Notes: generated from the letters alone by a model not told the origin. A stretch of DNA of 64,000 nt from Catajapyx aquilonaris (GCA_000934665.2 JYFJ02001380.1:1-64000); one strand, 5' to 3'. Positions 1,533 through 64,000 are shown, numbered from the stretch's first letter. A program made the numbers and translations.

Positions 1533-12059
<10,527 letters not shown>

Positions 12060-12897: not shown

Positions 12898-14787
12898 ATG
12901 TTGGAGAAAGTAGTGCTTGTGTTTTGCTTATTTTTGTGGACAGATTGTGCAAAGATGATAGTGACTGACAAATATGAGGATGAAAGTGAAGAGGCACTCT
13001 TGGCACAAGTAGTGTCCAGGATGAGCCAGGAGAACACTCGACTGGTCAACTGCACCGTGGCCATCCTGCACGATGGACGAGTACTGGACAATGGTCTGGA
13101 GAAACTAATCACTAGTGTGGACGTCCCAGTGGTGGTTGCTTCACTGGAGGAGAATCCGAAGCGTGTGAACGAGAGGGAATTGGTGATCCAGCAATCTGGG
13201 CAGTGCTTCTTCATTCTGGTTCACTGCAGTCTTAATTTGACGGAACAATTACTCAATCAATTTGCTAGTGGCCTGAGGCATTGGAAAACCACTCGTGACT
13301 TTATTGTGTTCCACATACATGACGGGCGTCTTTATGAAGCATTAGGATGGGAATCCCCACAATACAAGTACAGAGTGGGTGTGGACAATCTGAAGATTGA
13401 AAATGGAAACCTGACATTTCAGTTACTGTCAGCATGCTACTTCTGCCAGGAAGGAAACTATTCCGTCGGTGAATCACATGATGTCACATCTTTTGAGAAC
13501 TTCTTTATTGACAAGACAGTGGACTTTCGTGGGAGAGTCATTCGCGTCGTTAGTCCCCATTCTGATTTAAATCCATACTTGAAACAATACTTGCATTATG
13601 TAACCAAAGAAAACCATACGAAGGAAATTGACCAATTCGCTCACTACCAAAATAAGATCATACAGCCATTACATCTGGAATACTTTAGTTTTACCCACCC
13701 TTACGCAATGGATAGCATGATGATGGTAACAAAAAGACACCAACCAACCATGGCTTGGTCTGTGCTACTCGTTCCCTTTTCCTGGCAGGGGATTTTGCCT
13801 TTCATCACTGTGATATTGGTCATCACCGTAATGTTTTGCGGTCTTTTGAAATCTGGTCAAGGTAATTTTGTCACCATCCTTGTCCTTAAGGTGTCACCAC
13901 CTCTTTGTAACCAGTCCATCAAAATCAGAGACTTGAGACCTGCTGCGACCTGGATCTTCTGCATGTATCTCTTCTTCTGCGTCCTGATGTCCAACTTCTT
14001 CACTGCAGACATGGTCGGACTCTTTATGGATAAGCCCGTTAGAAATGTCGACTCTTTGACGGACCTTGTGGACATGGGTTACAAGTGGGGTGGCTGCCTA
14101 CATGACAAGCTTTACTTCGACTCCTTCGTCAATGTCACTGAGATAGAAGTGGAAAAAGTGATCGTGAATGGGATGGAATATTCCTATATGAAGGACTATT
14201 ACGACATCATGGCAGAATGTTTTGGTAAAGTAATGATGGAAAGGTTTGCTTGCTTCATGCAAGTAAGTCCTCTGAACAGTTATTTTGTGGCACAATACAG
14301 TTTTCATTGGAAAATATTTCATCAGGATGAGATTCATGTGGTGCGAAGTACTCTACCACTCATGATGGGTAGAATAATCACTACGAAGAAGTACTCCGTG
14401 GCATACGAATCCCTCCAACGAGGTGTGCTGAGATACATTGATTGCGGATTCCTTCATTACAACACGTACATTAAAATGAAGCAGATCACGGACCACCAGG
14501 AGATGTTTTTGTTCCAGGTAAGTGATAATGCTTCAAAAGGCAAGTCTCCAACGGCCCTCGAACTGAGTCACTTAAAGTCTCCATTTCATGCCCTGTGTTT
14601 TGGTATGTGTCTGTCATTGGCTTGTTTTCTGTGCGAAACTACAGATCTATTGGGTTTCCTAAAGCGACATGGTCGTCATAGTGGACCAAGACCCAAAAAA
14701 CTATCTGGCTGTGCTGTAAATCTGAACCAATTAAATATGCAGCACCCAACACTTAATCCGGAAACAAATCTATTATTCACACTATGA
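12898..14787 (+). CDS. Divergent ionotropic receptor (array copy 1), intact, intronless, 629 aa
   Basis: Signal peptide, short N-terminal domain with CYFC, DFRGR..FTHPY (S1), LxPF pre-M1, M1, re-entrant loop with Q, M3 (SNFFTADMVG, aligning with iGluR SYTANL), vDSLxDL, S2, RYIDCG and M4 (HLKSPF). The first in-frame ATG is at 12898. Confidence 0.85.
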   Translation: MLEKVVLVFCLFLWTDCAKMIVTDKYEDESEEALLAQVVSRMSQENTRLVNCTVAILHDGRVLDNGLEKLITSVDVPVVVASLEENPKRVNERELVIQQSGQCFFILVHCSLNLTEQLLNQFASGLRHWKTTRDFIVFHIHDGRLYEALGWESPQYKYRVGVDNLKIENGNLTFQLLSACYFCQEGNYSVGESHDVTSFENFFIDKTVDFRGRVIRVVSPHSDLNPYLKQYLHYVTKENHTKEIDQFAHYQNKIIQPLHLEYFSFTHPYAMDSMMMVTKRHQPTMAWSVLLVPFSWQGILPFITVILVITVMFCGLLKSGQGNFVTILVLKVSPPLCNQSIKIRDLRPAATWIFCMYLFFCVLMSNFFTADMVGLFMDKPVRNVDSLTDLVDMGYKWGGCLHDKLYFDSFVNVTEIEVEKVIVNGMEYSYMKDYYDIMAECFGKVMMERFACFMQVSPLNSYFVAQYSFHWKIFHQDEIHVVRSTLPLMMGRIITTKKYSVAYESLQRGVLRYIDCGFLHYNTYIKMKQITDHQEMFLFQVSDNASKGKSPTALELSHLKSPFHALCFGMCLSLACFLCETTDLLGFLKRHGRHSGPRPKKLSGCAVNLNQLNMQHPTLNPETNLLFTL

Positions 14788-15220
14788 GAGTTCAGTGACA
14801 ACATGCTTATTGAAGACTTTTAAATAACAATCAAAGCTGTGTTGTATATATTGTTCAAATGTTTCATTGTAATTATTTGCACATGTGTTTAGTTCCAGTG
14901 TGATGTGTCACACCTCATTTTCACGTTTTCGATCACTAATACAATAAATCAATACACTGCTTAGCATTATGCACACAAGTTAAGTGTTTCATTTAGTGGT
15001 AGTTGAAATAACGACTCTGCATAGAAGGTGATGCCTGACAATTCTGTTATTGACATACACTAACACCTAAGAAATTCACGAGGCTATATCGCATTCACAT
15101 CCAAGGGTCTTGACGAGTTGAGCAATAAGAGTGACATCACGTGCTCAGTGCTGTCACGTGCCAACTTGGTTGTCCACACCTTGAGCTGTCTCATTGGGAA
15201 ATACTTTCTGGGACACTCAG

Positions 15221-15725
15221 TCCTTCTTCACTTCCAACATGGTCAGACTTCTCATGAAAAAGTCTTTTAAAAATGTGGATTCTCTGAAGGATGTTGTGGA
15301 CATGAGCTACAAGTGGGGTGCCAGCAGACACGACATGTTTTATTTCGATTCCTTTCTGACGTGACCGAGATTGAACTGGAAAAGGTGATTGCCACCCGTC
15401 CGGGATTGAATACTACTATATGAAGGACTATTTTAATTTTATGAAAAAAATGGATTAAGAGAACAATGGTAGAGAAGTTTGCTTGCTTTGTGCAAGGTGC
15501 CTGGAACATGGGGTTTCCTTCACAGTACCAAACAGATAAACTTCATCTGGATCAGATTCACGTGGTACGAAGTGAACTAACATTCATTATGGGAGGAAGA
15601 GTGGTCACCCAGATAATTTACAAGGCCTAGAACTGCTCCAATTGAAGTCACCATTTTGCGCACTGTTTGTTGGATTATGCATTTCATTGGCTTCCTTCCT
15701 CTGCGAAACTAATATAACCTGATGA
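15221..15725 (+). pseudogene. IR remnant (end of M3 to M4) fused directly to a degenerate array promoter
   Basis: Recognisable ttcttcacttccaacatggtc..aatgtggattctctgaaggat..gagaagtttgcttgctt..gaagtcaccattt, with indels. Confidence 0.75.
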
Positions 15726-16220
15726 GTTTTTGTGCAATTAATATTGCTCAGCGATTATCGACAAAATATAAGGAAATGTAGGGTTACCCCACTCGTATTG
15801 ATTCAAGGTACAGGTAACATTAATTTCATTCTCTATAGGTATCCAGCTTCTAGGACGGAAATAAATTATTCTGATTTCTTCATATATCTCTTTGTAATTA
15901 TGCATACGTTGAGTGTAAGCTCGATTTTAATTGACCTTACGTAACTATCCATCACACGTTTTTCTCGCGTGTCTTCATTCAATTAATCAGGAAAATGTTT
16001 CGCATCAAGCCCTCAGCTATTCCTTTCATTATTCAACCATTGGAACGGCTGAGAAATTCAGGTGATGTGGAGTAATCCTATTTAATATTATTGACGAGTA
16101 GTGATGTTGGGATGACAGCATGTGCGCAATACTGTCACGAACCAATTGGGCAGTCCACACCTTGAGCTGTCTCATATTGGGATAGGCTTTGTGGCACTCT
16201 CAGTGCATGAAGCTATAAAC

Positions 16221-18002
16221 ATGTTCTGGAAACCTTTATTCATTTCGCACTTACTTTTGTGGACAGTTTTTGCAGAAGTGACAGTGACTACACAATCTGA
16301 GGATGAAAGTGAATTAACACTTTTGGCAGAAGTGGTGTCCAGGATGAGCCAGGAAAGCACTCGACTGGTCAACTGCACCTTGTCCATCCTGCACGATGGA
16401 CGAGTACTGGACAATGGTCTGGAGAAACTAATCACTAGTGTGGACGTCCCAGTGGTGGTTGCTTCACTGGAGGAGAATCCGAAGAGGGTGGACGAAAGTG
16501 AATTGGTGATCCAGCAATCGGGGCAGTGCTTCTTGATTCTTATTCATTCTGAATATGAGTATTTCTATTCGTTACTTCATCAATTATTTACTTCACTGAG
16601 AAAATGGAAAACAACTCGCGACTATATAGTTTTCCACATCACAGACGGATATCTTCATCATGCATTAGCATGGGAATCCCCACAATACAAGTACAGAGTG
16701 GGCGTGGACATATCAAAGCTGGAAAATGGCAACCTATCATTTCGGTGGCTGTCAGGGTGCTACTTCTGCCAGGATGGGAAATATTCGGTTGAAGAAGTGT
16801 CGACAGAGAAACCATTTGAAGACATATACAGGGAAAGCAAAGTGGATTTTCATAAGAGAGCCATTCACGTGTTGCAGCCACATCCTTTTTTAAATCCCTA
16901 CTTGGAACAATACCTTAATTACGCAACCGTGAATGAGAGCCGTGAGACGGATTTGTACAATCACGAACAGGAAAGCGATTTTTCAAAATTAGATAGTTAT
17001 GAAACTTTCACCCATCCGTATCGCATGGACAGGATGCTAATTCTCGCAAAAAATCATCCTCCAACTATGACTTGGGCAGTGCTTCTCTTTCCCTTCTCTT
17101 GGCAGGTGACTGACTGTCCCTTTCATCGCTGTAATATTGGTGATCACCTCTGCGTTTTGCCATCTCCTGAAACCAGACCAAAGTACTTCTAAGCTTCACT
17201 TCAGTTTTGTCACCATCCTTACCCTTAAGGTGTACCCACCTCTTTTGTGCCAGTCCATCAAAATGAGAGACTTGAGACCTGCTGCGACCTGGATATTCTG
17301 CATGTATTCCTTCTTCTGTGTCCTGATGTCCAACTTCTTCACTGCAGACATGGTCGGACTGCTCATGAAACAACCTGTTAAAAATGTGGATTCTCTGAAG
17401 GATCTTGTGGATATGGGCTACAAGTGGGGGACCACCAGACTGCACATGGAGTATTTCTATTCCTTTGCGAACGTGACCGGGATTGGAGTGGAAACAGTGA
17501 TCGCCAATGGGATGGAATACTCCGATATGGAGAACTATTACGAATTCATGTTAGAATGCACTCAGAGAGTAGTGATGGAGAAGTTTGCTTGCTTCCTAAT
17601 AGAAACTTGGTGGGTATGTTAGAGTACGATCCTAAAGCAGAAGAATTGCATCTGGATGAGATTCACGCGGTGCCAACTGAACTACCACTCGTAATGGTGG
17701 GAGTAGTCACTGAGGAAAGGTACTCGGTAATTTACGAATCTCTGCAACGAGGGTTGATGCGATACATTGACTGCGGATTCCTTCAGTACGAAACGTGCCT
17801 CATAATGCAGCTGTCGATACCTCAGCGGATGATTTCATTCGAGGAAGGAGAAGTAGTATCCGATGAAAATAATTTGAAAGGCCTCGAACTGATTCATTTG
17901 AAGTCGCCCTTTCTCGCCCTGTGTGCTGGATTATGCATGTCTTTGGCTTGCTTCCTATGCGAAATTAGTAAAATAATGGCTTTCTCATGCAAATCTGACT
18001 GA
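16221..18002 (+). pseudogene. IR array copy 2, two frameshifts (~17110, ~17612)
   Basis: Three overlapping ORFs (16122..17192, 17137..17622, 17424..18002) together make one full-length paralogue. Confidence 0.85.
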
Positions 18003-19019: not shown

Positions 19020-20030
19020 ATGTTCTGGCAGGCTTTATTCATTTCGCACTTACATTTGTGGACAGTTTTTGGCGAAGTGAAAAAAACTATCAAATCAGAC
19101 TATGAAAGTGAAGAGACATTTTTGGCACAAGTAGTGTCCAGCATGAGCCAGGAGAACACTCGACTGGTCAACTGCACCTTGGCCATCCTGATCGATGGAC
19201 GAGTACTGGACAATGGTCTGGAGAAACTAATCACTAGTGTGGACGTCCCAAGTGGTGGTTGCTTCACTGGAGGAGAATCCGAAGAGTGTGGACGAGAGGG
19301 AATTGGTGATCCAGCAATCGGGGCAGTGCTTCTTCATTCTTGTTCACTCCAAATTTAATTTGATTGATAAATTACTCATGAAACAGCCCGTTAAAAATGT
19401 GGATTCTCTGAAGGATCTCTTGGACATGGGCTACAAGGGGAAGACCAGCAGAGAGCACAATCATGCTTTATTTTGATTCCTTTGCGGCCGTTACCGAGGT
19501 TGAAGTGGAAAAATTGATTGCCGGTGGTGTCGAATACTCCGAAATGGATGACTACCACCACTTCGTGGAGGAATGCATTGGGAGAGCAATGGCGGATAAG
19601 TTTGCTTGATTCGTACCAGAAAACATCTGGAACATGATAAGCTTAGTACAATATTATCAATCAGCGGATAAATGTCATCTGGATCAGATTCACGCGGTGC
19701 GAAGTGAACTATACCAGTCATGATGGGGGGAATAGTCATTGAGGAAAAGTACTCAGTTATTTACGGATCTCTCCAACGAGGTGTGATGAGATACATTGAC
19801 TGCGGGATTCTTCATTACGACACATACGTCATATAATGCAGCAGGTCAAACATTATTTCCTGACGACTTCCACCAAAGAACACAAAGTTGCATCTGATGA
19901 AGATAATCTAAAAGGACTCCAACTGCTCCAATTATTGAAGTCGCCATTTCTCGCACTCTGTGTTGGATTATGATTGTGTGGCATTGGCTTGCTTATTTTG
20001 CGAAATTACAAAGTCATGGGTCGTGCAATG
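19020..20030 (+). pseudogene. IR array copy 3, decayed, with an internal deletion of S1-M3
   Basis: +1 insertion at ~19250. The N-terminal part is joined at ~19375 to the post-M3 MKQPVKNVDSL, with further stops and indels downstream. Confidence 0.85.
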
Positions 20031-20534
20031 TTCTTTCTAAGCCTTCAAAACGCCATATTATACACATGGACTGGAAAAATGTCACCATTGATATTGTTGA
20101 ATTTCATTGTTGTCTTGGTATTATGTGTGTTGACCATACTTTGAAAACAACGAATCAGCAACAATCATCGTTGATATTATAATAACTGGTTTCCATGTCA
20201 TCTCTGGAACGCTCTGAAGCAGTTGCATTCTCTTCCTATACATATCCATTGTGGTCGGCCATCAATCCACCATTGGCCAGGCCTACTTACATCTGCACGG
20301 GACTTGGTGTGTCTCTCTGTATCAGTATAGGCTACCTACAGAGGTGAAGGTACCTAGTATAAATTTCATGACCAGCTTATAAAATCAGTCTCAATATGTT
20401 TGCACTAGCACTCGTATATTTGAAGTAATTGTTTAAATAATTGTTTTAAATATTAATAAAACAATGAATCCTGCTCATTTTTTATTGGCTGTACCTTATT
20501 TTAATCCAGCAGGCGGCGATCAACAGAGAAAATA

Positions 20535-24860: not shown

Positions 24861-26741
24861 ATGCTCTGTCAAGCTGTGTTCATTTCTCAGATACTTTTGA
24901 GGGCAGTTTTTGCAGAAGTGACAGTGACTAGGAAATCCCAAGTTGAGATTGAACAAACTCTTTTGGCACAAGTAGTGTCTAGGATGAGCCAGGAGAACAC
25001 TCGACTGGTCAACTGCACTTTGGCCATCCTGCACGATGACCATGTCCTGGTCAATGGTCTGAAGAAACTAATCACTAGTGTGGACGTCCCAGTGGTCATT
25101 GGTTCACTGGAGGAGAATCCGAAGAATGTGAACGAGAGGGAATTGGTGATCCAGCAATCGGGGCAGTGCTTCTTGATTCTTGTTCACTCCAAACGTAACT
25201 TGCTTGACCAGCTGCTAGTCCGCCAATTTGCTAATGGCCTGAGACATGGGAAAATCACCCGCGACTTGATTGTCTACCACGTACGTGACAGATATACTAT
25301 TGAAGCTTTGAACAGGGAATCTGAACAATACAAATACAGAGTGGGTCTGGATAATTTGAGGGTAGAAAATGGGAAACTAACATTTCGGTTGATGTCCGCA
25401 TGCTACTTCTGCCAAAAAGGAAAGTACTCGGTCCAAGAACTGTCTACAGAGGCGCCATTTGAAGACTTATACAAAGACAACACAATGGATTTTGGCGGGA
25501 GGACAATTCACGTGCTGGGGACTCCAGATTTTTTTTTAAACCCCTACTTGCAACAATACCTGCATTACGTAACGATGATGTCACTGATGTACGAAACCCG
25601 TAAGACGTCCCTCTACACTCACGAACATGAAATCGATATATTAACATTAGATAACTCACAGACTTTCACCCACCCTTATCGAATGGAAAAGATGTTAATT
25701 CTCACTAAAAAACATCTTCCAACCATGACTTGGGCGGTGCTTCTCTGTCCCTTCACCTGGCAGGTGACACTTCCTTTCGTGACTGTGATATTGGTACTCA
25801 CCACACTGTTTTGCCATCTCTTAAAACCTGGTCAAAGCACTTCCAAGTATCACTTCAGTTTTCTCGCCATCCTTGCCCTGAAGGTGTACCCACCCCTTTT
25901 GTGCCAATCCATCAAAATCAGAGACTTGAGACCTGCTGCGACCTGGATCTTCTGCATGTACTTCTTCTTCTGTGTCCTGATGTGCAACTTCTTCACTTCC
26001 GATATGATCGGACTATTCATGGACAAAGCAGTTAAAAACGTGGATTCTCTGGATGATCTTGTGGACATGGGCTACAAGTGGGGAACAATTAAACAGCACA
26101 GGTCTTATTTCGATTCCTTTGCGAACGTGACCGAGATTGAATTGGAAAAAGTGATCGTCAATGGGATGGAATTCTTCGATATGGAGGACTACTATTACTA
26201 CAACTCCATGTTAGGATGCGTTAGGAGAGTAATCGTGGAGAAGTTTGCTTGCTTCGTACCAGAACGCATCTGGAGCGTGGTGAGCTTGGCACGGTATCAT
26301 TCTTCGGATGAATACCATATGAATCAGATTCATGCGGTACAAAGCGAACTACCACTCATGATGATGGGAATAGTCACTCAGGTACAGTACTCTGTTATTT
26401 ACGAATCTCTGCAGCGAGGTGTAATGAGATACATTGACTGCGGATTCCTTCATTTCGGCACGTACGTCATAATGCAACATTTCAAATATTTATTTCTGAT
26501 GATTTCATTCAAGGAACGAAAAATTTCATCCGATGGAAATAATTTAAAGGGACTCGAACTGCTCCATTTGAAGTCTCCATTTCTCGCCCTGTGTGTTGGA
26601 TTATCAGTGTCTTTGGCATGCTTTCTTTGCGAAGCTACAAACGCGATTGATCTTCATGCAATTCGTGCTAAACAATGCACGGCTGTTAATCGACACAAAT
26701 CATCAGAAAAGATATGCACGTCACACTCGTATACCGATTAG
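24861..26741 (+). CDS. Divergent IR (copy 4), full-length to M4; tail frameshifted before the terminal motif
   Basis: Same architecture as copy 1. The ATG at 24861 precedes a signal peptide (MLCQAVFISQILLRAVFA). Confidence 0.85.
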   Translation: MLCQAVFISQILLRAVFAEVTVTRKSQVEIEQTLLAQVVSRMSQENTRLVNCTLAILHDDHVLVNGLKKLITSVDVPVVIGSLEENPKNVNERELVIQQSGQCFLILVHSKRNLLDQLLVRQFANGLRHGKITRDLIVYHVRDRYTIEALNRESEQYKYRVGLDNLRVENGKLTFRLMSACYFCQKGKYSVQELSTEAPFEDLYKDNTMDFGGRTIHVLGTPDFFLNPYLQQYLHYVTMMSLMYETRKTSLYTHEHEIDILTLDNSQTFTHPYRMEKMLILTKKHLPTMTWAVLLCPFTWQVTLPFVTVILVLTTLFCHLLKPGQSTSKYHFSFLAILALKVYPPLLCQSIKIRDLRPAATWIFCMYFFFCVLMCNFFTSDMIGLFMDKAVKNVDSLDDLVDMGYKWGTIKQHRSYFDSFANVTEIELEKVIVNGMEFFDMEDYYYYNSMLGCVRRVIVEKFACFVPERIWSVVSLARYHSSDEYHMNQIHAVQSELPLMMMGIVTQVQYSVIYESLQRGVMRYIDCGFLHFGTYVIMQHFKYLFLMISFKERKISSDGNNLKGLELLHLKSPFLALCVGLSVSLACFLCEATNAIDLHAIRAKQCTAVNRHKSSEKICTSHSYTD

Positions 26742-27677: not shown

Positions 27678-30600
27678 ATGATCTGTCAAGCTGTGCTCAT
27701 TTATCACTTACTTTTCTGGACTGTTTTTGCCGAAGTGACAGTGACTACGAAATCCCAAGTTGAGATTGAACAAACGCTTTTGGCACAAGTTGTGTCCAGG
27801 ATGAGCCAGGAGAACACTCGACTGGTCAACTGCACCTTGGCCATCCTGCACGATGGACGAGTACTGGACAATGGTCTGGAGAAACTAATCACTAGTGTGG
27901 ACGTCCCGGTGGTGGTTGCTTCACTGGAGGAGAATCCGAAGAGTGTGAACCAAAGTGAATTGGTGATCCAGCAATCGGGGCAATGCTTCTTGAATCTTGT
28001 TCACTCCAGACGTAACTTGCTTGATCGGTTACTCGGAAAATTTGCTAATGCCCTGAGACATGGGAAAATCACCCGTGACTTGATTGTCTACCACTTACAT
28101 GACAGATATACTGTTGAAGCTTTGAACTGGGAATCTGAAAACTACAAGTACAGAGTGGGTCTGGATAATTTGAGGGTAGAAAATGGGAACCTAAAATTTC
28201 GGTTACTGTCAGCGTGCTACTTCTGCCAAAAAGGAAAATACTCGGTCGAAGAATTGTCTACAGAGGCGCCATTTGAAGACTTATACAAAGACAACATAGT
28301 GGATTTTGGCGGGAGGGCAATTCACGTGGGGACTCCAGATTATCTTTTAAACCACCTCTACATGGCGACGTACCTGCATTACGTAACGTTGACGTTACTA
28401 ACATACGAGACCCGTGAGACGTTCCTCTACACTCACGAATATGAAATCGATATATTAACATTAGATAACTCACAGACTTTCACCCATCCTTATCGAATAG
28501 ACAGGATGTTAATTGTCACTAAAAAACATTCTCCAACCATGACTTGGGCGGTTCTTCTCTGTCCCTTCACCTGGCGGGTAACACTTCCTTTCGTGACTCT
28601 GATATTGGTAATCACCGCAGTGTTTTGCCTTCTCTTAAAACCAGACCAAAGCACTTCCAAGTATCACTTCAGTTTCGTCACCATCCTTGCCCTGAAGGTG
28701 TACCCACCCCTTTTGTGCCAGTCCATCGATATGAAAGACTTGAGACCTGCCGCGACCTGGATATTCTGCATGTATTTCTTCTTCTGTGTCCTGATGTGCA
28801 ACTTCTTCACTGCAGACATGATCGGACTATTTATGGACAAAACAGTTAAAAACGTGGATTCTCTGGAGGATCTTGTGGACATGGGCTACAAATGGGGAGC
28901 AATTAAACAACACATGTCTTATTTTGATTCCTTGGCGAACGTGACCGAGATTGAAATGGAAAAAGTGATCGTCAATGGCATGGAATACATCGATATGGAG
29001 GACTATTATTACCACGTCTCCATGTTAAAAGAATGCGTCAGGAGATTAATGGTGGAGAAGTTTGCTTGCTTCGTACCAGAACGCATGTGGAGCGTGGTGA
29101 GCCTGACACAGTATCATTCTTCGGATGAATATCGTATTGATCAGATTCACGCGGTACAAAGCGAACTACCACTCGTGATGATTGGAATGGTCACTAAGGT
29201 ACAGTACTCGGTAATTTACGAATCTCTGCAACTAGTCCGGGCCCTAAGCGCAAAAATCAGGCCTAACCTTGCATTTTGTGATAAGAAGGTGCCACTTGGC
29301 ACATATGTTCCTTAGGCCTATAGGAGCAATTCCAGAGTTGCAGGCAACTGATCGGCCCCTTAGGTCACGAGTTATGCGGTGTTGCCAACATGGCCTGGGA
29401 TGACCTGAGCGTTTTTAACGTTGCATTTTGTGATAAGAAGGTGCCGCTTGGCACATATGTTCCCTAGGTCTGTAGGAGTCGTTTGAGAGATGGCGGCACT
29501 TGATCGGCTCCTTAGGTCAGGAGTTATGCGGTGTTGCCAACCTGGTCCTGGACCTAAGCGTTTTGTACCATTTTTAACTTTGCATTTTGGGATAAGAAGG
29601 TGCCACTTGGCACATATGTTCCTTAGGCCCATAGGAGCAATTTCAGAGTTGCAGGCAACTGATCGGGCCCTTAGGTCACGAGTTATGCGGTGTTGCCAAC
29701 CTGATCAGGGAACTAAGCGTTTTAACTCGGCACTTTGTGATGAGAAGGTGCCACTTGGCAGACATGTTCCCTAGGTGTATAGGATCCATTTGAGAGATGG
29801 CGGCACTTGATCCGCTCCTTAGGTCACGAGTTTTGCGGTGTTGCCAACCTGGTCCGGAACCTAAGCATAACCGCATAACTCGTGATCTAAGGGGCAGATC
29901 AGGTGCCACCAACTCTCAAATGGAACCTCTAGGCCTGGGGAACATTCTTGTAAAAATCCCAATATTCAAAGTTAAAAATGGTTCAAAACGCTTAGGTCCA
30001 GGACCAGGTTGGCAACACCGCATAACTTCTGACCTAAGGAGCCGATCAAGTGCCGCCATGTCTCAAACGACTCCTACAGGCCTAGGGAACATATGTGCCA
30101 AGCGGCACCTTCTTATCACAAAATGCAACGTTAAAAACGCTCAGGTCATCCCCGGCCATGTTGGCAACACCGCATAACTCGTGACCTAAGGGGCCGATCA
30201 GTTGCCTGCAACTCTGGAATTGCTCCTATAGGCCTAAGGAACATATGTGCCAAGTGGCACCTTCTTATCACAAAATGCAAGGTTAAGACGCTTAGGGCCC
30301 GGACTAAACGAGGTGTGATGAGATACATTGACTGCGGAATACTTCATTACTACACATACGTCATAATCCAACTTTTCAAATATATATATATTTGCTGAAA
30401 GAACGAAAAATTTCCTCCGATGGAAATAATTTAAAAGGACTCGAACTGCTCCATTTGAAGTCACCATTTCTCGCCCTGTGTGTTGGATTATCAGTGTCTT
30501 TGGCATGCTTCCTATACGAAGCTACAAGAGTGATTGATCTTCGTGCAATTAGTGCTAAACAATGCACGCCTGTTAATCGACATTCTATCGACAAATCACT

Positions 30601-40358: not shown

Positions 40359-40389
40359 TGGCTTATAATAATTAAAATGGAAAATGGAT

Positions 40390-46820: not shown

Positions 46821-48734
46821 ATGTTTCGTCGATATGCGTTCATCATATGCCTAATTTTGGGGACTGTTTTGGCCAAAGTAAGAATGACTTCAAAATGTCA
46901 GGATGAAACTGAAGAGACACTCTTGGCACGAGTAGTGTCCAGGATGAGCCAGGAGAGCACTCGACTGGTCAACTGCACCTTGGCCATCCTGCACGATGGA
47001 CGAGTGCTGGACAATGGTCTGGAGAAACTAATCACTAGTGTGGACGTCCCAGTGGTGATTGCTTCACTGGATGAGAATCCGAAGGGTGTGGAAGAAAGTG
47101 AATTGGTGATCCAGCAATCAGGGCAGTGCTTCTTGATTCTTGTTCATTCCAAATACGAATATTTTCATCCGGTACTTCTACAATTGTATAATTCTATGAG
47201 AAAATGGAAAATAACGCGCGACTATATCGTTTTCCACATTAGTGACGGCTATCTTCGTGAAGTTTTAGGGTGGGAATCCGGAGAATTCAAGTTCAGAGTG
47301 GGTGTGGACAATTTGAAGATGGAAAATGGCAATCTGACATTTCGGTTACTGTCAGCATGCTACTTCTGCCAGGAAGGAAAATACTCCGTCAAAGAATCGC
47401 ATAATGTCACTTCATTTGAAGACTTGTTTACTGACGCAACAATGAACTTTCGAGGGAGAGCCATTCACTTGATTGGTGAAGACTATTGGTTGAACCGCTA
47501 TTTGGAGAAATACCTGCATTATGTAAAGGAAGACAACCGTGCGGCATTACATGAGGACCTGTATGCCCACTACCAAATTGCAGCAATTCAGGTTTACTTT
47601 GACACTTGCACGCACCCTTACCGATATGACAGCATGATGATGATTTCCAAGAAATTCACACCAACCATGACTTGGGAAGTGCTTCTCTTTCCCTTTTCAT
47701 GGAAAGTGACACTGCCTTTCATCGCTGTGATATTGGTCATCACCGCAGTGTTTTCCCGTCTCTTGAAACCAAGACAAGGCACTTCTACGTACAACTTCAA
47801 TTTTGTCGCCATCCTTGCTCTTAAGGTGTCTCCACCTCTTTTTAACCAGTCCATCGAAATCAGAGACTTAAAACCTACTGCGACCTGGATCTTCTGCATG
47901 TATTCCTTCTTCTGTGTCCTCATGTCCATTCTATTCACTTCAAACATGGTCGGACTATTCATGGACAAGCCTGCTAGAAACGTGGATTCATTGGACGATC
48001 TTGTGGACATGGGCTACAAATGGGGTGGAAAGAAGAGCGACTCGTTTTACTTCGATCATTTCGTCAATGTCACTGAGATTGAAGTGGAAAAAGTGATTGT
48101 CAATGAAATCGAGTACTATGACATCGACGACTATTACGACTTCATGGAAGAATGCATCGCAAGAACAATGTTGGATAAGTTTGCTTGCTTCGTATATGAA
48201 GGACTTATGGACTCTTACCTAGCATTTGGAAACATTGATCGATCTCAAAGCAGATTTCACACTGATCAACTTCATGTGGTCCGAAGTTCACTACCGATTT
48301 TAATGAGCGGAATTTCTCCCCTCGTAAAGTACTCAATCACAATCGAATCTCTGCAACGAGGTGTGATGAGATACATTGACTTCGGAATCCTTCAATACGA
48401 CAAGGATCTCAGGTACAAGAGGAATGCAGAAGTCCAGCAGATGTCTTTTTTCAAGGCGGAAAATTCTGCGTTTCTTGTAAATTCTCCAAAACCCCTCGGA
48501 CTGCCTCATTTGCAATCACCATTTCACGCCCTGTGTTTTGGACTGTGTGTATCATTGGCCTGTGCTTTGTGTGAAATTACAAATCTGTTGGGTTTCCGTT
48601 CAATTTTTGTTAAACGACACGAGCATGCTAATGTACGCAGCAAAGAAATAGACATCGTACAACATGGCCAGAATAAAATAGATGTGAACTGTGCGCCAAA
48701 CAATCCTGACACAAATCTGGCCTTCACAATCTGA
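46821..48734 (+). CDS. Divergent IR, intact, 637 aa
   Basis: Full architecture, ending NPDTNLAFTI. Its upstream region is much more degenerate than in most copies. Confidence 0.85.
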   Translation: MFRRYAFIICLILGTVLAKVRMTSKCQDETEETLLARVVSRMSQESTRLVNCTLAILHDGRVLDNGLEKLITSVDVPVVIASLDENPKGVEESELVIQQSGQCFLILVHSKYEYFHPVLLQLYNSMRKWKITRDYIVFHISDGYLREVLGWESGEFKFRVGVDNLKMENGNLTFRLLSACYFCQEGKYSVKESHNVTSFEDLFTDATMNFRGRAIHLIGEDYWLNRYLEKYLHYVKEDNRAALHEDLYAHYQIAAIQVYFDTCTHPYRYDSMMMISKKFTPTMTWEVLLFPFSWKVTLPFIAVILVITAVFSRLLKPRQGTSTYNFNFVAILALKVSPPLFNQSIEIRDLKPTATWIFCMYSFFCVLMSILFTSNMVGLFMDKPARNVDSLDDLVDMGYKWGGKKSDSFYFDHFVNVTEIEVEKVIVNEIEYYDIDDYYDFMEECIARTMLDKFACFVYEGLMDSYLAFGNIDRSQSRFHTDQLHVVRSSLPILMSGISPLVKYSITIESLQRGVMRYIDFGILQYDKDLRYKRNAEVQQMSFFKAENSAFLVNSPKPLGLPHLQSPFHALCFGLCVSLACALCEITNLLGFRSIFVKRHEHANVRSKEIDIVQHGQNKIDVNCAPNNPDTNLAFTI

Positions 48735-50586: not shown

Positions 50587-51977
50587 ATGATTCATAAAGT
50601 TTTGCTTTCCACACTCCTATTTTGTTGGACAGCTTGTGCAAAAGTGACAGTGACTACAGAATCCGACGATGAAAGTGAAGAGACACTTTTGGCAAAGGTA
50701 GTGTCCAGTATGAGCCAGGAGAACACTCGACTGGTCAACTGCACCTTGGCCATCCTGCACGATGGACGAGTACTGGACAATGGTCTGGAGAAACTAATCA
50801 CTAGTGTGGACGTCCCAGTGGTGGTTGCTTCACTGGAGGAGAATCCGAAGAGTGTGGACGAGAGGGAATTGGTGATCCAGCAATCGGGGCAGTGCTTCTT
50901 CATTCTTGTTCAATCCAAATACGAACATTTTCGTGCGTTACTTGAACAATTTGATGACTCAATGAGAAAACGGAAAATAACCGGCGACTATATTATTTTC
51001 CACATTAGTGACGGGTATCTTCATGAAGCATTAGAATGGGAGTCTCCCCAATACAAGTACAGAGTGGGTGTGGACAATCTGAAGATGGAACATGGCAATA
51101 TAATATTTCAGTTACTCTCACTGTGCTACTTCTGCCAAAAAGGAAAATACTCGGTCGAAGAATCGCATAATGTCACTTCACTTGAATACTTGTTCACTGA
51201 CACGACAGTGGACTTTCGAGGGAGAGCCATTCACGTAAATCATGAAGATGATATTTTGAACCTCTATATGGAGAAATACCTGCATTATGTAAGTAAAGAA
51301 AACGTTTCTGCAATTATCATGAAGACCTGTACGCTCACCGGACAAGTGTAGCAATACAGGTTGGCCGTAACACTTACACCCACCCTTACATAATGGAAAG
51401 CATGATGATGGTGACCAAGAAAATCACACCAACTATGACTTGGGCTGTGCTTCTCTTTCCCTTCTCCTGGCAGGTGACGCTGCCTTTCGTGATTGTGATA
51501 TTGGTAATCACGACAGTGTTTTGCCATCTCTTGAAACGAGGCCAATGCACTTCCAAGTATCACTTCAATTTTGTCACCCTCCTTGTCCTCAAAGTGTACC
51601 CACCCCTTTTATGCCAGTCCATCAATATCAGAGACTTGAAACCTGCTGCGACCAGGATCTTCTGCATGTATTCCTTCTTCTGTGTCCTGATGTCCAACTT
51701 CTTCACTGCAGACATGATCGGACTGTTAATGAAACGCCCTGCAAAAAATGTTGACACTCTGACTGATCTTGTGGACATGGGCTACAAGTGGGGTGGAGAG
51801 AAGAGCGACACATTTTACTTCGATCAATTTGTCAATGTCACTGAAATTGAAGTGGAAAAAGTGATCGCCAATGGGATCGAGTACTACGAAAAGGAAGATT
51901 ATGACGACTTCATGGAAGAATGCCTTGGGCGAGCACTGGTGGAGAAGTTTGCTTGCTTTGTGTATGGAGATTATCTG

Positions 51978-52054
<77 letters not shown>

Positions 52055-54765: not shown

Positions 54766-56604
54766 ATGTTTTGGAAATGGGGATTCATTGTGCACTTACT
54801 TTTGTGGACTGTTTTTGCCGAAGTGACAGTGACTACAAAATCTGAGGATGAAAGTGAAGAGACACTCTTGGTAAAAGTAGTGTCCAGGATGAGCCAGGAG
54901 AACACTCGACTGGTCAACTGCACCTTGGCCATCCTGCACGATGGACGAGTACTGGACAATGGTCTGGAGAAACTAATCACTAGTGTGGACGTCCCAGTGG
55001 TGGTTGCTTCACTGGAGGAGAATCCGAAGAGTGTGGACGAGAGGGAATTGGTGATCCAGCAATCGGGGCAGTGCTTCTTGATTCTTGTTCACTCCAAATA
55101 CGAATATTTTCGTGCTTTACTTGAACAATTATTTTATTCACTGAGAAAACGGAAAATAACTCGCGACTATATCGTTTCCTACATATGTGACGGGTATCTT
55201 CATGATGCATTAGAATGGGAATCACCTCAATACAAGTACAGAGTGGGTGTGGACAATTTGAAGATGGAAAATGGCAATCTGACATTTCGGTTGCTGTCAG
55301 CGTGCTACTTCTGCCAGGAAGGAAACTATTCCGTGAAAGAATCACAAAATACTTCATTTGAATACTTGTTCACTGACACAACAATGGACTTTCGTGGAAG
55401 AGCCATTCACTTGTTTGGTGAAGACTATTGGTTGAACCGCTATTTGGAGAAATACCTGCATTATGTAAAGGGAGACAACCGTGCGGCATATCAGGACGAC
55501 CCGTACGCCCACAGCCAAGGTGCAGTAATACTGGTTGGCCTTCACACTTACACACATCCTTACAAAAGGCAATGCATGATGATGGTTACGAAGAAAATCA
55601 CAGCAACCATGACTTGGGCTGTGCTTCTCTTTCCCTTCTCCTGGCAGGTGACGCTGCCTTTCGTGATTGTGATATTGGTAATCACCACAATGCTTTGCCA
55701 TCTCTTGAAGCCAGGTCAAAGTACTTTTGCGTATCACTTCAATTATGTCACCGTCCTTGCCCTGAAGGTGTACCCACCCCTTTTGTGTCAGTCCATCAAA
55801 ATGAGAGACTTGAGACCTGCTGCGACCTGGATCTTCTGCATGTATTCCTTCTTCTGCGTCCTGATGTCCAACTTCTTCACTGCAGACATGGTCGGACTGT
55901 TAATGAAACGCCCAGTTAAAAATGTGGATTCTCTTCAGGATCTTGTGGACATGGGCTACAAGTGGGGTGCAGCGCAGAGTGGCTCATTTTACTTCAATGC
56001 TTTCGTCAATGTCACTGAGATTGAAGTGGAAAAAGTGATCGCCAATGGGATCGAGTACTACGGCAGCGAATATTATATGGACTTTATTGAAGAATGCATT
56101 GGAAGAGCAATGGTGGAGAAGTTTGCTTGCTTTGTATTTGAAGGATATATGGACTTTTATATTGCGTTTGGAAACATTCATCGATCTAATAGGAGATTAT
56201 TTCACTCTGATCAGCTTCATCCGGTACAAAGTTCACTACCGCTTAAGATGGGCGGATTATCTCCCCGAATAAAGTATTCGGTCACATTAGAATCTCTTCA
56301 ACGAGGTGTAATGAGATACATTGACTTCGGAATCCTTCAATACGACATGGATCTCAGGTTCAAGTGGAGCATAGAAGTCATGCAGATGGCTTCGTTCAAG
56401 GAGAAAAATGCTACAGCCGATGCGAATTCTCCAACAGCCCTCGGCCTGCCTCACTTGCAGTCTCCATTTCACGCCCTGTGTTTTGGATTGTGTGTATCAT
56501 TGGCTTGTTTTCTGTGTGAAAAAACAAATCTGCTGGGTTTTTATTCAATTGTGGTGAAACGACACGACCAACAAAACAACTATAATCGTACATGTAATAA
56601 ATAA
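54760..56604 (+). CDS. Divergent IR, full-length to M4, short tail, 614 aa
   Basis: Full architecture. Start is 54760 or 54766. Confidence 0.85.
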   Translation: MNMFWKWGFIVHLLLWTVFAEVTVTTKSEDESEETLLVKVVSRMSQENTRLVNCTLAILHDGRVLDNGLEKLITSVDVPVVVASLEENPKSVDERELVIQQSGQCFLILVHSKYEYFRALLEQLFYSLRKRKITRDYIVSYICDGYLHDALEWESPQYKYRVGVDNLKMENGNLTFRLLSACYFCQEGNYSVKESQNTSFEYLFTDTTMDFRGRAIHLFGEDYWLNRYLEKYLHYVKGDNRAAYQDDPYAHSQGAVILVGLHTYTHPYKRQCMMMVTKKITATMTWAVLLFPFSWQVTLPFVIVILVITTMLCHLLKPGQSTFAYHFNYVTVLALKVYPPLLCQSIKMRDLRPAATWIFCMYSFFCVLMSNFFTADMVGLLMKRPVKNVDSLQDLVDMGYKWGAAQSGSFYFNAFVNVTEIEVEKVIANGIEYYGSEYYMDFIEECIGRAMVEKFACFVFEGYMDFYIAFGNIHRSNRRLFHSDQLHPVQSSLPLKMGGLSPRIKYSVTLESLQRGVMRYIDFGILQYDMDLRFKWSIEVMQMASFKEKNATADANSPTALGLPHLQSPFHALCFGLCVSLACFLCEKTNLLGFYSIVVKRHDQQNNYNRTCNK

Positions 56605-57065: not shown

Positions 57066-58877
57066 ATGATTCATAGAGTTTTACTTTGCACACTCCTATT
57101 TTGTTGGGGAGCTTGTGCTCTGGTGACAGTGACTACAAAATCTGAGGATGAAAGCGAAGAGACACTCTTGGCACAAGTAGTGTCCAGGATGAGGCAGGAG
57201 AACACTCGACTGGTCAGCTGCACCTTGGCCATCCTGCACGATGGACGAGTACTGGACAATGGTCTGGAGAAACTAATCACTAGTGTGGACGTCCCAGTGG
57301 TGGTTGCTTCACTGGAGGAGAATCCGAAGAGTGTGGACGAGAGGGAATTGGTGATCCAGCAATCGGGGCAGTGCTTCTTCATTCTTGTTCACTCCAAATA
57401 CGAATATTTTTGTGCATTACTTGAACAATTTAATGACTCACTGAGAAAACGGAAAATAACTCGCGACTATATTATTTTCCACACTAGTGACGGGTATCTT
57501 CATGAAGCATTAGAATGGGAGTCTCCAAAATACAAGTACAGAGTAGGTGTGGACAATATGAGGATGGATAATGGTAACCTAACATTTCGGATGCTGTCAG
57601 CGTGCTACTTTTGTGAGGATGGAAAATACTCTGTTGAAGAACTGTCAACAGAGAAGCCATTTGAATATTTGTATATTGACAACACAGTGAACTTTGGCGG
57701 GAGGGCTGTTCACGTGGAGTCTCCAGATTATTTTTTAAACCCCCACTTGGAAGAATACCTGCATTACGTAACTGCCATGAATGAGACCGGTGAGACTGAC
57801 CTCTACACTCACTATCATGAAATAGAAGCATCAGTATTAAAATCACAGACTTTCACCCAGCCTTATCGAATAGAGAGGATGTTAATTATCACTAAAAAAC
57901 CATTTCCAACCATGACTTGGGCTGTGCTTCTCTTTCCCTTCTCCTGGCAGGTGACACTGCCTTTCATCACCGTGATATTGGTAATCACCGCAGTGTTTTG
58001 CCATCTCTCGATACCAAGTCAACGCAATTCTACGAATAACTTCAATTTTGTCGCCATCCTTGCCCTGAAGGTGTACCCACCCCTTTTGTGCCAGTCCATC
58101 GAAATGAAAGATATGAAACCTGCTGCGACCTGGATATTCTGCATGTATTCCTTCTTCTGTGTCCTGATGTCCAACTTCTTCACTGCAGACATGGTCGGAC
58201 TGCTCATGAAAAAGTCTGTTAAAAATGTGGATTCTCTGCAGGATCTTGTTGACATGGGCTACAAGTGGGGGACCAGCAGAGAGCACATGCTTTATTTTGA
58301 TTCCTTTGTGGAAGTGACGGAGATTGAATTGGAAAAGGTGATCGTCAATGGGATCGTATACTCCTATGAGGACTATGCATCGTTTCTAGAAGAATGCATT
58401 GATAGAGTAATGGTGGATAAGTTTGCTTGCTTCGTACCAGAACTTGCATGGAGCCTGGTGGGCATGATGCTCGATAATAATTTACGCTTTGATGTTAATC
58501 TGGATGAGATTCATGCGGTACAAAGCGAATTACCACTCATGATGGTAGGAATAGTCACTAAGGTCAGGTCCTCGGTAATTTACGAATCTCTGCAACGAGG
58601 TGTGATGCGATACATTGAATGCGGATTCTTCAATTTCTACATTCAACGACTCAAATACGAGTATATGCTGGCAAGTATGCTGGTGATGATTCAGTACAAA
58701 GAAGAAAACACAATTATATCCGATGGAAATAATTTAGAAGGACTCAAACTACTCCACTTGAAGTCACCATTTCTTGCCCTGTGTGTTGGATTATCTGTGT
58801 CATTTGCATGCTTCCTATATGAAACCACAAATTCAGTAGGCCTTCGTGCAATTCTTTGCAAACCTGTAATTAATTAA
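57066..58877 (+). CDS. Divergent IR, full-length to M4, tail truncated, 603 aa
   Basis: Full architecture. NPQTNLVFTL is still encoded downstream of the stop (~58958-58989). The upstream region matches that of copy 50587. Confidence 0.85.
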   Translation: MIHRVLLCTLLFCWGACALVTVTTKSEDESEETLLAQVVSRMRQENTRLVSCTLAILHDGRVLDNGLEKLITSVDVPVVVASLEENPKSVDERELVIQQSGQCFFILVHSKYEYFCALLEQFNDSLRKRKITRDYIIFHTSDGYLHEALEWESPKYKYRVGVDNMRMDNGNLTFRMLSACYFCEDGKYSVEELSTEKPFEYLYIDNTVNFGGRAVHVESPDYFLNPHLEEYLHYVTAMNETGETDLYTHYHEIEASVLKSQTFTQPYRIERMLIITKKPFPTMTWAVLLFPFSWQVTLPFITVILVITAVFCHLSIPSQRNSTNNFNFVAILALKVYPPLLCQSIEMKDMKPAATWIFCMYSFFCVLMSNFFTADMVGLLMKKSVKNVDSLQDLVDMGYKWGTSREHMLYFDSFVEVTEIELEKVIVNGIVYSYEDYASFLEECIDRVMVDKFACFVPELAWSLVGMMLDNNLRFDVNLDEIHAVQSELPLMMVGIVTKVRSSVIYESLQRGVMRYIECGFFNFYIQRLKYEYMLASMLVMIQYKEENTIISDGNNLEGLKLLHLKSPFLALCVGLSVSFACFLYETTNSVGLRAILCKPVIN

Positions 58878-59922: not shown

Positions 59923-61846
59923 ATGTTCTGGAAATGTGCATTCCTTGCGCACTTACTTTTGTGGACTGTTTTTGCCGAAGTGACAGTGACTACAAAATGT
60001 AAGGATGAAAGTGAAGAGACACTCCTGGCACAAGTTGTGTCCAGGATGAGCCATGAGAACACTCGACTGGTCAACTGCACCTTGGCCATCCTGCACGATG
60101 GACGAGTACTGGACAATGGTCTGGAGAAACTAATCACTAGTGTGGACGTCCCAGTGGTGGTTGCTTCACTGGAGGAGAATCCGAAGAGTGTGGACGAGAG
60201 GGAATTGGTGATCCAGCAATCGGGGCAGTGCTTCTTGATTCTTGTTCATTGTAAAATAATACGAATATTTTCGTGATTTACTTGAACAATTATATTATTA
60301 AGTGAGAAAGTGGAAAATAACTCGTGATTATATCATTTTCCACATTAGTGACGGGTATCTTTATGAAACTTTAGGATGGGAATCTCCACAATACAAGTAC
60401 CGGGTGGGTGTGGACAATTTGAAGATGGTGAATGGCGATGTAACATTTCGATTGCTGTCAGCATGCTACTTCTGCCAGGAAGGAAAATACTCCGTCAAAG
60501 AATCACATAATGTCACTACATTTGAAGACTTGTTCACTGACACAACAATGGATTTTCGAGGGAGAGCCATGCACTTGTTTGATGTAGACTATTGGTTGAA
60601 CCGCTATTTAGAGAAATACCTGCATTACGTATGGGAATACGACGATGCTGCATATGAGGAGGACCTGTACGCTCACCGCGTAAGTGCAGCAATACTGGTT
60701 GGCCGTGACACTTACACCCACCCTCATGTAATGGAAACCATGATGATGGTGACCAAAAAAATCACACCAACCATGACTTGGACTGTGCTTCTCTTTCCCT
60801 TCAGTTGGCAGGTGACACTCTCTTTCATCGCAGTGATATTGGTAACCACCGCAGTGTTTTGCCATCTCTTGAAACCGGGCCAAAGCACTTCCACATACCA
60901 CTTCAATTTTGTCACCATACTTGCCTTTAAGGTATGCCCACCCCTTTTGTGCCAGTCCATCGAAATGAAAGACTTGAAACCTGCTGCGACCTGGATATTC
61001 TGCATGTATTCCTTCTTCTGTGTCCTGATGTCCAACTTCTTCACTTCAGACATGATAGGACTGTTAATGAAACGCCCTGCAAAAAATGTTGACACTCTGA
61101 CTGATCTTGTGGACATGGGCTACAAGTGGGGTGGAGAGAAGAGCGACGCATTTTACTTCGATCAATTTGTCAATGTCACTGAGATTGAAGTGGAAAAAGT
61201 AATCGCCAATGGGATCGAGTACATCAAAAGGGAAGCGGATTCCTACTCCATTGAAGAATGCCTTAGGAGAGCAATGGAGGAGAAGTTTGCTTGCTTTGTA
61301 AATGGAGGAGAGCTGGACTTTCATCTTCTATATGGAATCATTCTACGATCTCAAGGAAGATTGCTCCCTGATCAGCTTCATATGGTCCGAACTTCACTTC
61401 CCCTTAGGATGAGCGGAATATCTCCCCGAGTAAAGTACTCTGTCACATTAGAATCTCTGCAACGAGGTGTGATGAGATACATTGACTACGGAATTAGTCA
61501 TTACGACTACGATCTCAGGGACAAGCGGAACAAAGAACTCATGCATATGTATTATTTCAAAGAGTATAATGCTGCGTCTGTTGAGAATGATCCAATAGCC
61601 CTCGCCCTGAGTCACTTGCAGTCTCCATTTCACGCCCTGTGTTTTGGATTGTGCTTGTCATTGGCTTGTTTTCTCTGCGAAACTACAAATCTGCTGGGTT
61701 TCCTTTCAATTATCGCTAAACGACACGGCCATGCAACACGGCAGGTACGCAACAAAATAATAGTCCCCGTACCGAAAGACCCGAATAGAGTCAACTTGCA
61801 CTCTGAGCTAATCAATCCGGACACAAACCTGGTTTTCACACTGTGA
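59923..61846 (+). pseudogene. IR copy with a +4 frameshift (~60255) and an adjacent premature TAA (60299-60301)
   Basis: ORFs 59923..60276 and 60302..61846. The remainder is intact and ends NPDTNLVFTL. Confidence 0.87.
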
Positions 61847-63169: not shown

Positions 63170-63346
63170 AATCCTCCTGGAGTTGAATGCACAAGGGTCA
63201 TGGGTGTGGCAACCTCTCTAGGCTCTCCAGAGCCACGCACCCACTCCCGGTCAACTGCTCGCAGTTGTCCTCCAAAAGGTGGTTCCTGGAGGGCCTAGAG
63301 AGGTTGCCACACCCATGAACCCGGTGTATTCAACACCAGGTGCATT
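63170..63346. mobile_element. Hairpin MITE in the promoter of the last IR copy
   Basis: cctggagttgaatgcacaagggtcatgggtgtggcaacctctctaggctctccag is inverted at ctggagggcctagagaggttgccacacccatgaacccggtgtattcaacaccagg. TSD not resolved. Confidence 0.75.
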
Positions 63347-63519
63347 ATGTCAATAATGTGTCCACATGGCGAAATCCTATCAAATATTCTTGACGAGTCG
63401 TGATGTAGCAATGACAGCTTCATGGAAATACTCTCACGAACCAAGTGGGCAGTCCACACCTTCAGTTGTCTTATATTGGGACACATTTTGTGGCACTCCC
63501 AGTCCATGAAGCTACAAAC

Positions 63520-64000
63520 ATGTGCTGGCAAGATGTATTCATTTTCCCCTTACTTTTGTGGACAGTTTTTGCCGAAATGACAGTGACTACAAAATGTCAG
63601 GATGAAACTGAAGAGGCCCTTTTGGCAAAAGTGGTGTCCAGGATGAGGAAGGAGAACACTCGACTGGTCAACTGCACCTTGGCCATCCTGCACGATGGAC
63701 GAGTACTGGACAATGGTCTGGAGAAACTAATCACTAGTGTGGACGTCCCAGTGGTGGTTGCTTCACTGGAGGAGAATCCGAAGAGTGTGAACGAGAGTGA
63801 ATTGGTGATCCAGCAATCGGGGCAGTGCTTCTTGATTCTAGTCCACTCCAAATTTAATTTGCTTGATCTGTTACTCGGTAAATTTTCTAATGGCCTGAGA
63901 TATTGGAAAATCACTCGTGACTTGATTGTGTTCCACGTACGTGATGGGAATCTTCATGAAACATTAGGATGGGAATCTGCAATATACAAGTACAGAGTGG
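63520..64000 (+). CDS. Divergent IR, 5' part, runs off the window
   Basis: Read by hand: MCWQDVFIFPLLLWTVFAEMTVTTKCQDETEEALLAKVVSRMRKENTRLVNC..., open to the window edge and preceded by the promoter module. Confidence 0.8.
   Translation, partial: MCWQDVFIFPLLLWTVFAEMTVTTKCQDETEEALLAKVVSRMRKENTRLVNCTLAILHDGRVLDNGLEKLITSVDVPVVVASLEENPKSVNESELVIQQSGQCFLILVHSKFNLLDLLLGKFSNGLRYWKITRDLIVFHVRDGNLHETLGWESAIYKYRV

Follow-up and report, generated by a model that had tools for sequence, protein, structure and literature searches.

A short block shared by sixteen receptor-like genes of a Catajapyx aquilonaris tandem array and its probable homogenization by regional gene conversion

Introduction

Why should one short part of a gene stay nearly the same in every member of a tandem array, dead members included, while the rest of each gene diverges? 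This question is raised by a 64,000-nt stretch of Catajapyx aquilonaris DNA (JYFJ02001380.1:1-64000), which we call the window and whose coordinates are used throughout. At least 16 open reading frames (ORFs) without introns, about 600-676 codons each and designated g1 to g16 here, follow one another in it as a tandem array on the + strand. A model's reading of the sequence, hereafter the original prediction, had pointed to a GC-rich block of about 200 nt that is nearly identical in all of these receptor-like genes, and had attributed it either to a hotspot of GC-biased gene conversion or to an element that acts at the DNA or RNA level. The observation is real and far beyond chance. Region-restricted, probably GC-biased, interlocus gene conversion across the array is, we propose, its likely cause.

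Results

Extent and identity of the block

The copy in g1 (13012-13211) served as the reference for the block. A pattern of 26 nt taken from the start of the block matched all 16 of the predicted starts, every one on the + strand and with no more than 2 mismatches. The pattern had no further match in the window, and 0 were expected from 100 shuffles. The block is about 210-220 nt long and begins about 115 nt past the ATG, at the same place in all copies, which are spaced 2300-5841 nt apart. The copies are listed below; differences are counted from the block consensus.

Copy 1, 13012..13211, + strand: g1, coding sequence 12898-14787, intact; 4 differences
Copy 2, 16335..16534, + strand: g2, frame broken downstream (three frames by tblastn); 6 differences
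Copy 3, 19134..19334, + strand: g3, decayed, 1-nt insertion in the block; 4 differences
Copy 4, 24975..25174, + strand: g4, coding sequence 24861-26741, intact; 14 differences, 7 of them at positions 65-88
Copy 5, 27792..27991, + strand: g5, coding sequence cut by a transposon at 29233-30306
Copy 6, 31189..31388, + strand: g6, ORF 30970-33000, intact
Copy 7, 33818..34017, + strand: g7, coding sequence 33704-35620, intact; recombinant
Copy 8, 38544..38743, + strand: g8, broken; 22 differences, 16 of them at positions 90-121
Copy 9, 40911..41110, + strand: g9, coding sequence 40797-42662, intact
Copy 10, 43533..43732, + strand: g10, coding sequence 43419-45347, intact
Copy 11, 46935..47134, + strand: g11, coding sequence 46821-48734, intact
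Copy 12, 50701..50900, + strand: g12, frame broken twice downstream; 1 difference
Copy 13, 54880..55079, + strand: g13, coding sequence 54760-56604, intact; equal to the consensus
Copy 14, 57180..57379, + strand: g14, coding sequence 57066-58877, intact; 5' flank sister to that of g12, body not
Copy 15, 60037..60236, + strand: g15, disrupted by 4 inserted nt immediately 3' of the block; 1 difference
Copy 16, 63634..63833, + strand: g16, gene continues past the window end

Nine genes are thus intact (g1, g4, g6, g7, g9, g10, g11, g13 and g14). Frame breaks or deletions occur in g2, g3, g8, g12 and g15, g5 is cut by a transposon and g16 overruns the end of the window.

In ungapped comparison with copy 1, 13 of the 15 other copies matched at 17-20 of 20 positions in each 20-nt step over the first 200 nt, and the match dropped to 4-15 of 20 immediately beyond. 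The exceptions to this pattern were the copy at 19134, where the 1-nt insertion shifts the register, and those at 24975 and 38544, which carry local patches of differences. All 16 units were then aligned with MAFFT and the mean pairwise identity was calculated in 50-column windows. Across the four windows that cover 13007-13205, identity was 0.93-0.96 and G+C content was 0.51-0.55. The adjoining windows showed identities of 0.79 and 0.77, and those farther out 0.58-0.73 with a G+C content of 0.35-0.42. At 10-nt resolution, identity rises from 0.78 to 0.94 over 12992-13012 and falls from 0.99 to 0.66 over 13201-13228, which places the edges of the block near 13002-13012 and 13211-13228. Between these edges the profile stays at 0.86-1.00 for about 210 nt, with a dip to 0.86-0.88 at 13161-13180 and no single peak of motif size. 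The 3' end of the block is graded, with old shared variants at positions 158-166. The G+C content of 13012-13211 is 0.540, compared with 0.415 in the 200 nt on either side. The contrast with the flanks is also seen in g1, g2, g11 and g14: their flanks reach no more than 0.70-0.87 identity with the nearest other copy, and their blocks average 0.94-0.96 with the others.

These counts agree closely with the original prediction. Copy 1 and the copy in g13 differ at 4 of 201 block columns, where about 5 of about 200 had been estimated, and the first 150 nt of copy 1 contain 82 G+C, where 81 had been given. The block of the decayed g3, described as almost pristine, departs from the consensus at 4 columns, one of which is the 1-nt insertion. 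The copies nevertheless keep private variants, namely 53 singletons and two dense patches, one in g4 (25039-25062, 7 differences in 24 nt) and one in g8 (38633-38664, 16 in 32 nt).

Synonymous divergence inside and outside the block

The nine intact genes were aligned by codon, and the block occupies 66 codons of this alignment (VSRMSQ...QSGQCF). The proportions of synonymous (pS) and nonsynonymous (pN) differences and the G+C content at third codon positions (GC3) were as follows.

Block, 66 codons: pS 0.063, pN 0.043, GC3 0.68
Coding sequence before the block: pS 0.409, pN 0.248, GC3 0.37
Coding sequence after the block: pS 0.424, pN 0.226, GC3 0.48

The lowest pS in 491 other 66-codon windows was 0.238, and random sets of 66 codons never reached a synonymous diversity as low as that of the block (0/10000). 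The corrected synonymous divergence (dS) was 0.066 in the block and 0.621 outside it, about a tenfold drop. The original prediction had named a sliding-window analysis of dS and GC3 as its check, with a block dS no lower than that of the remaining coding sequence as the result that would speak against it; the analysis clearly gave the opposite result, with a block dS far below the rest. Outside the block, the closest pair of genes has a pS of 0.154, which is above the mean of all pairs within the block. The block sequences therefore coalesced later than the youngest duplications in the array.

The ratio of pN to pS in the block is about 0.68. The 52 singleton substitutions in the block are spread over codon positions 1, 2 and 3 in the ratio 20:16:16, and the mean identity at these positions is 0.951, 0.967 and 0.931, respectively. 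Third positions with an A or T consensus (n = 20) are 0.934 identical and those with a G or C consensus (n = 46) are 0.929 identical. The alignment itself provides an internal control at codons 165-198, where a pN of 0.07-0.11 goes with an ordinary pS of 0.36-0.38. This stretch shows that constraint on the protein lowers pN and leaves pS normal. In addition, the broken genes g12, g15, g3, g2 and g8 differ from the block consensus at 1, 1, 4, 6 and 22 positions, respectively, and the nine intact genes at 0-14. Since identity is even over codon positions and base types and the broken copies have kept the block, selection on the protein or on codon usage is excluded as its source.

Genealogies on the two sides of the block

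Separate trees were computed for the 318 nt that precede the block (5' tree) and for 685 nt that begin 215 nt after the block start (3' tree). The 5' tree groups g4, g5, g7, g8 and g10 in one clade (support 100/99) and g12 with g14 (100/100). The 3' tree instead pairs g7 with g13 (100/100) and places g12 and g14 on opposite sides of a split with 100/99 support. Approximately unbiased (AU) tests rejected the groupings of each side on the data of the other (p = 2e-11, 2e-6 and 1e-43). The switch is also evident in pairwise identities:

g7 and g10: 0.927 upstream of the block, 0.69-0.73 downstream
g7 and g13: 0.735 upstream of the block, 0.94-0.96 downstream

The resemblance of g7 to g13 lasts until about codon 450-500, beyond which its nearest relative is g9. 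Such a bounded tract favors conversion over a single misjoin in the assembly. Since the genealogy differs across the block, recombination there is a fact under any reading. In g7, and in either g12 or g14, the module of promoter and signal peptide has come to stand before a different receptor body, the exchange having taken place at the block.

Among the parsimony-informative sites of the block, all 12 need at least two changes on the 5' tree and 11 of the 12 do so on the 3' tree. All four gametes are present in 12 of 36 site pairs inside the block, and no shared block variant unites the sister pairs g6/g9, g7/g13 or g4/g10.

Gene remnants were found at 49360-49635 and 53717-53991, about 1.1-1.25 kb upstream of g12 and g13, and the two are closely alike over the 400 nt that were aligned. 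In both, the match covers the signal peptide and the pre-block region and ends within a few bases of the 5' edge of the block (...GGTGGTGT); a short match to codons ~185-200 resumes about 134 nt farther on. The large internal deletion of g3 begins about 25-30 nt past the 3' edge of its block. Together with the 4-nt insertion in g15, these cases suggest that structural breaks cluster at the block borders.

Composition and a second dip in synonymous diversity

Along the coding sequence, pS is negatively correlated with GC3 (rho = -0.56, p = 0.0012, 30 windows), and the correlation persists when the block windows are removed (rho = -0.46, p = 0.019). A second, weaker dip in synonymous diversity was found downstream of the block:

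13893..14042, + strand: alignment codons ~341-385, pS 0.18-0.23, GC3 0.54-0.77

DNA identity in the windows here is 0.87, 0.93 and 0.79 in copy-1 coordinates, with the 0.93 peak in the window that starts at 13943. The dip encodes a hydrophobic region (...RDLRPAATWIFCMY...) and is possibly another conversion-prone segment.

The array genes and their relatives

By sequence similarity, the array genes are likely to be divergent ionotropic-receptor-like genes of the arthropod type, although their domain matches lie below the formal Pfam cut-off: against PF00060, P0001 scored 16.5 bits (E = 0.007) and P0002 17.8 bits (E = 0.003), compared with a curated cut-off of 30.8 bits. A profile of the nine intact proteins reaches proteins with PF00060 and PF10613 at E values down to 1.9e-10, and in the ESM Atlas the closest clusters are arthropod ones of Lig_chan and IR75A_N (0.96-0.97). 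An AlphaFold2 model from the nine-sequence alignment was unusable, with a mean predicted local distance difference test score of 29.5. The paralogues are old, with a corrected synonymous distance of about 0.62 outside the block as opposed to about 0.07 inside.

P0001 had no match at E <= 0.001 in a word-indexed protein search. A profile search of 1.84 billion representatives returned 26 matches, of which only P0003 is close (E = 1.4e-22), the others being weak matches to channel domains. P0003, a fragment of 161 residues, shares 37% identity over 134 residues and may come from the same species or another. In the block it agrees at ~30 of the 67 residues and in the stretch that follows at ~16 of 57, as counted by eye on the alignment. 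The original prediction had started from the premise that the N-terminus is the least conserved part of such receptors; this does not fit P0003, the single outside relative, which resembles the block more than what follows it. A metagenome locus scan with the N-terminal alignment gave 86 pattern matches, 0 of which were confirmed.

Neighbouring genes, remnants and a transposon

The array is interrupted by other genes. A distant ionotropic-receptor-like gene in two ORFs lies within it on the minus strand at 21791-23696. Its C-terminal ORF matches Pfam Lig_chan above the cut-off (E = 5e-9); its N-terminal half aligns collinearly to the array proteins, with 20% identity. The gene lacks the block. 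Between g3 and g4, an ORF with MATH and BTB/POZ domains (SPOP-like; 20505-21554, + strand) breaks up the receptor array. Directly upstream of the first array gene are two ORFs with protein-tyrosine phosphatase domains (10789-11993, + strand; E = 2e-7 and 9e-40), which are probably exons of one gene.

Short intergenic remnants of the 3' half of family genes occur at 15221-15716, 30306-30586, 36413-36892 and 50053-50127, so the array also holds decayed partial copies without the block.

The insertion that cuts g5 is 1074 nt long (29233-30306); similarity to the family's coding sequence breaks off at 29231 and picks up again at 30306. The insertion is bounded by perfect terminal inverted repeats of 18 nt and apparently duplicated a TA target, and in its interior, units of ~152 nt form long inverted arms (330 nt, 98% complementary). 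The summed depth of read contigs over it is in the thousands, compared with tens beside it. It looks like a high-copy DNA transposon of the foldback or MITE (miniature inverted-repeat transposable element) type.

Discussion

Regional gene conversion and the points that weigh against it

The drop in synonymous divergence, the rise in GC3, the preservation of the block in broken copies, the conflict with the flank trees and the homoplasy of block sites all point to the GC-biased conversion hotspot of the original prediction. We propose that a segment of about 210-220 nt has been overwritten repeatedly as the members of the array exchanged sequence through interlocus (ectopic) gene conversion or unequal recombination. 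As a result, all 16 copies, the dead ones included, would share a far more recent common sequence in the block than elsewhere. The closer match of P0003 to the block than to the next stretch suggests that the block may encode the slowest-evolving module of the extracellular N-terminus. A slow module would stay similar enough to serve as a substrate for homology-dependent recombination, and the high identity so produced would sustain further conversion, such that the two reinforce each other. The flanks may be too diverged to take part, or conversions that spread into them may be selected against because they erase receptor specificity. GC-biased repair of conversion heteroduplexes would account for the raised G+C content.

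Several observations fit this proposal less well. Divergence between blocks does not rise with the physical distance between copies (rho = -0.11, p = 0.52). Random conversion tracts alone would not yield the same two edges in 16 copies, and the common edges call for an extra factor, be it a hotspot, selection at the edges or a functional element. The dense patches in g4 and g8 are unexplained; either complex mutations or short tracts brought in from paralogues that lie outside the window could account for them. Singletons in the block have no clear direction (25 strong-to-weak and 19 weak-to-strong); since they are uninformative in this respect, the case for a GC bias is one of composition only. 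The ratio of observed to expected CpG, 0.54 in the block and 0.75 in the rest of the coding sequence, is likewise unexplained. The groups compared in the AU tests were named only after the trees had been seen, although the margins are very large. Finally, protein and metagenome searches yielded no close relatives to set against the clustering of blocks by species, rather than by orthologue, that concerted evolution predicts.

Alternative explanations

The block could instead be a DNA- or RNA-level element that is present in every gene and held by purifying selection on its nucleotides, alone or on top of conversion. We consider this unlikely. Such an element might be an insulator or enhancer within the exon, a promoter for antisense transcripts, or a target of small RNAs through which receptors are expressed in a coordinated or exclusive way. 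Conservation regardless of codon position, and in broken genes as well, is as such an element predicts. Both edges and the place of the block, ~115 nt past the ATG, are constant in all copies, and the exonic CTCF site of Pcdh-alpha exons (excerpted from PMC7811963) provides a precedent. However, constraint predicts that substitutions follow the gene tree, and every one of the 12 informative sites is at odds with the 5' flank tree, no block variant unites the pairs g6/g9, g7/g13 or g4/g10, and the genealogy changes across the block. Identity is flat over ~210 nt without a motif-sized core, and the folding energy is no better than that of shuffled sequences (z = +0.56 on the + strand and -0.57 on the - strand). 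No reverse-complement or extra copy of the block longer than 13 nt occurs in the window, and the distant minus-strand receptor gene within the array does without the block. Neither the raised GC3 nor the correlation of pS with GC3 outside the block is predicted by a nucleotide element. One antisense frame is open through all 66 block codons, which we treat as chance; no minus-strand ORF of at least 150 residues overlaps the block of g13. Of the two explanations in the original prediction, the DNA- or RNA-level element thus drew no support from folding, from the search for inverted or extra copies or from the identity profile.

An artefact of assembly or polishing, in which reads from different copies of the block were mixed and a single consensus was imposed on all of them, seems very improbable to us. 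A repeat of ~200 nt at ~95% identity is of the kind in which short-read polishing can mix copies, and the four sequencing runs that contain the stretch, all of them DNA runs with no RNA run listed, come from one sample of one study that may be the source of the assembly, so that they are not independent of it. Even so, the copies have kept their 53 private variants and the patches in g4 and g8. Contigs assembled independently from raw reads (X1-X4) over 24700-44600 showed a single differing letter in seven blocks (27994, at the end of the block of g5); they do show differences elsewhere, though they are short and their cover of each block is unconfirmed. Bins that contain the block mostly have a raised summed word depth (207 compared with 44-53 beside it in X1), a coarse measure that nonetheless fits a truly multi-copy sequence. 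Polishing would also not produce a raised GC3 or a graded 3' end with old shared variants (158-166). The simplest alternative, in which the block is no more than the protein's most constrained part, or a target of selection on codon usage, with no DNA-level process at work, deserves almost no credence. The block is indeed the part best conserved against P0003 (~30/67 compared with ~16/57 residues), but its pS is as depressed as its pN (0.063 versus 0.42, and 0.043 versus 0.23), its A/T-ending codons are as invariant as its G/C-ending ones, broken genes have kept it, and a truly constrained stretch nearby has a normal pS.

Implications

If regional gene conversion is the cause, this array is an unusually clean natural case in which conversion and divergence partition one exon: a 210-nt island is held in common by 16 genes over 50 kb, and the rest of each gene diverges freely outside it. 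It also carries a warning: if the block is included, phylogenies of such receptor families, the dates given to their duplications and their dN/dS scans will be wrong, and it would be misleading to annotate duplicates as "recent" on the strength of their 5' ends. The exchange of 5' modules at the block points to one way in which the expression and the specificity of chemoreceptors may be recombined in evolution. A bolder and rather doubtful extension is that the block is a maintained homology cassette, set between the receptor body and the module of promoter and signal peptide, at which recombination re-pairs regulatory regions with ligand-binding bodies, perhaps also serving as a choice element of the type known from Pcdh-alpha. 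Were this true, the array could change which sensory neuron expresses which receptor, and selection would favor one identical cassette in every member.

Comparison with known systems

The closest parallel is in the protocadherin clusters of fish. In fugu, as excerpts of the report describe (PMC1852091), subclusters have a discrete boundary between 5' parts that are 60-80% identical and 3' parts that are nearly identical, and GC3 climbs from 38-45% to 54-69% in the homogenized region, which was read as regional gene conversion; the same excerpts cite Noonan et al. 2004 for zebrafish protocadherins. Both arrays consist of tandem single-exon units for neuronal surface receptors (receptor-like genes, in our case), and in both one coding part is nearly identical at synonymous sites as well, with a discrete boundary and a higher GC3. 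They differ in that the island here is ~210 nt long rather than hundreds of codons, lies near the 5' rather than the 3' end, is common to all 16 copies rather than to subclusters, and is ~95% rather than >99% identical. The present family is ionotropic-receptor-like and belongs to an arthropod-looking genome, and we describe one genome, whereas lineage specificity was shown for fugu.

Among Drosophila chemosensory paralogues, divergent ionotropic receptors included, conversion between neighbours was detected by GENECONV in some ortholog groups, according to the portion of that study drawn on here (PMC4122928). The receptor class is broadly the same and neighbouring paralogues are involved in both cases. 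The events in Drosophila are scattered and pairwise with little overall effect, in contrast to the array-wide island with fixed edges in 16 copies here. Our search of the gene-conversion literature on ionotropic and chemosensory receptor arrays, which was not exhaustive, found no description of an array-wide homogenized 5' block in ionotropic receptor genes.

In Pcdh-alpha, each alternate exon has an exonic CTCF-binding site (eCBS) that is tied to an antisense promoter and to promoter choice, as stated in the excerpted text of PMC7811963. Like the eCBS and the conserved sequence element (CSE) of the promoter, the block is a conserved sequence that recurs in every member of a tandem neuronal receptor array at a fixed coding place. 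The eCBS, however, has the size of a motif, binds a protein and has been shown to act in the choice of promoter, whereas the block is flat over ~210 nt and is known from its sequence alone. Gene conversion itself is a well-known process; what is particular to this array is the small size of the block, its fixed edges, its reach across all members and its role as the point where 5' modules have been exchanged between receptor bodies.

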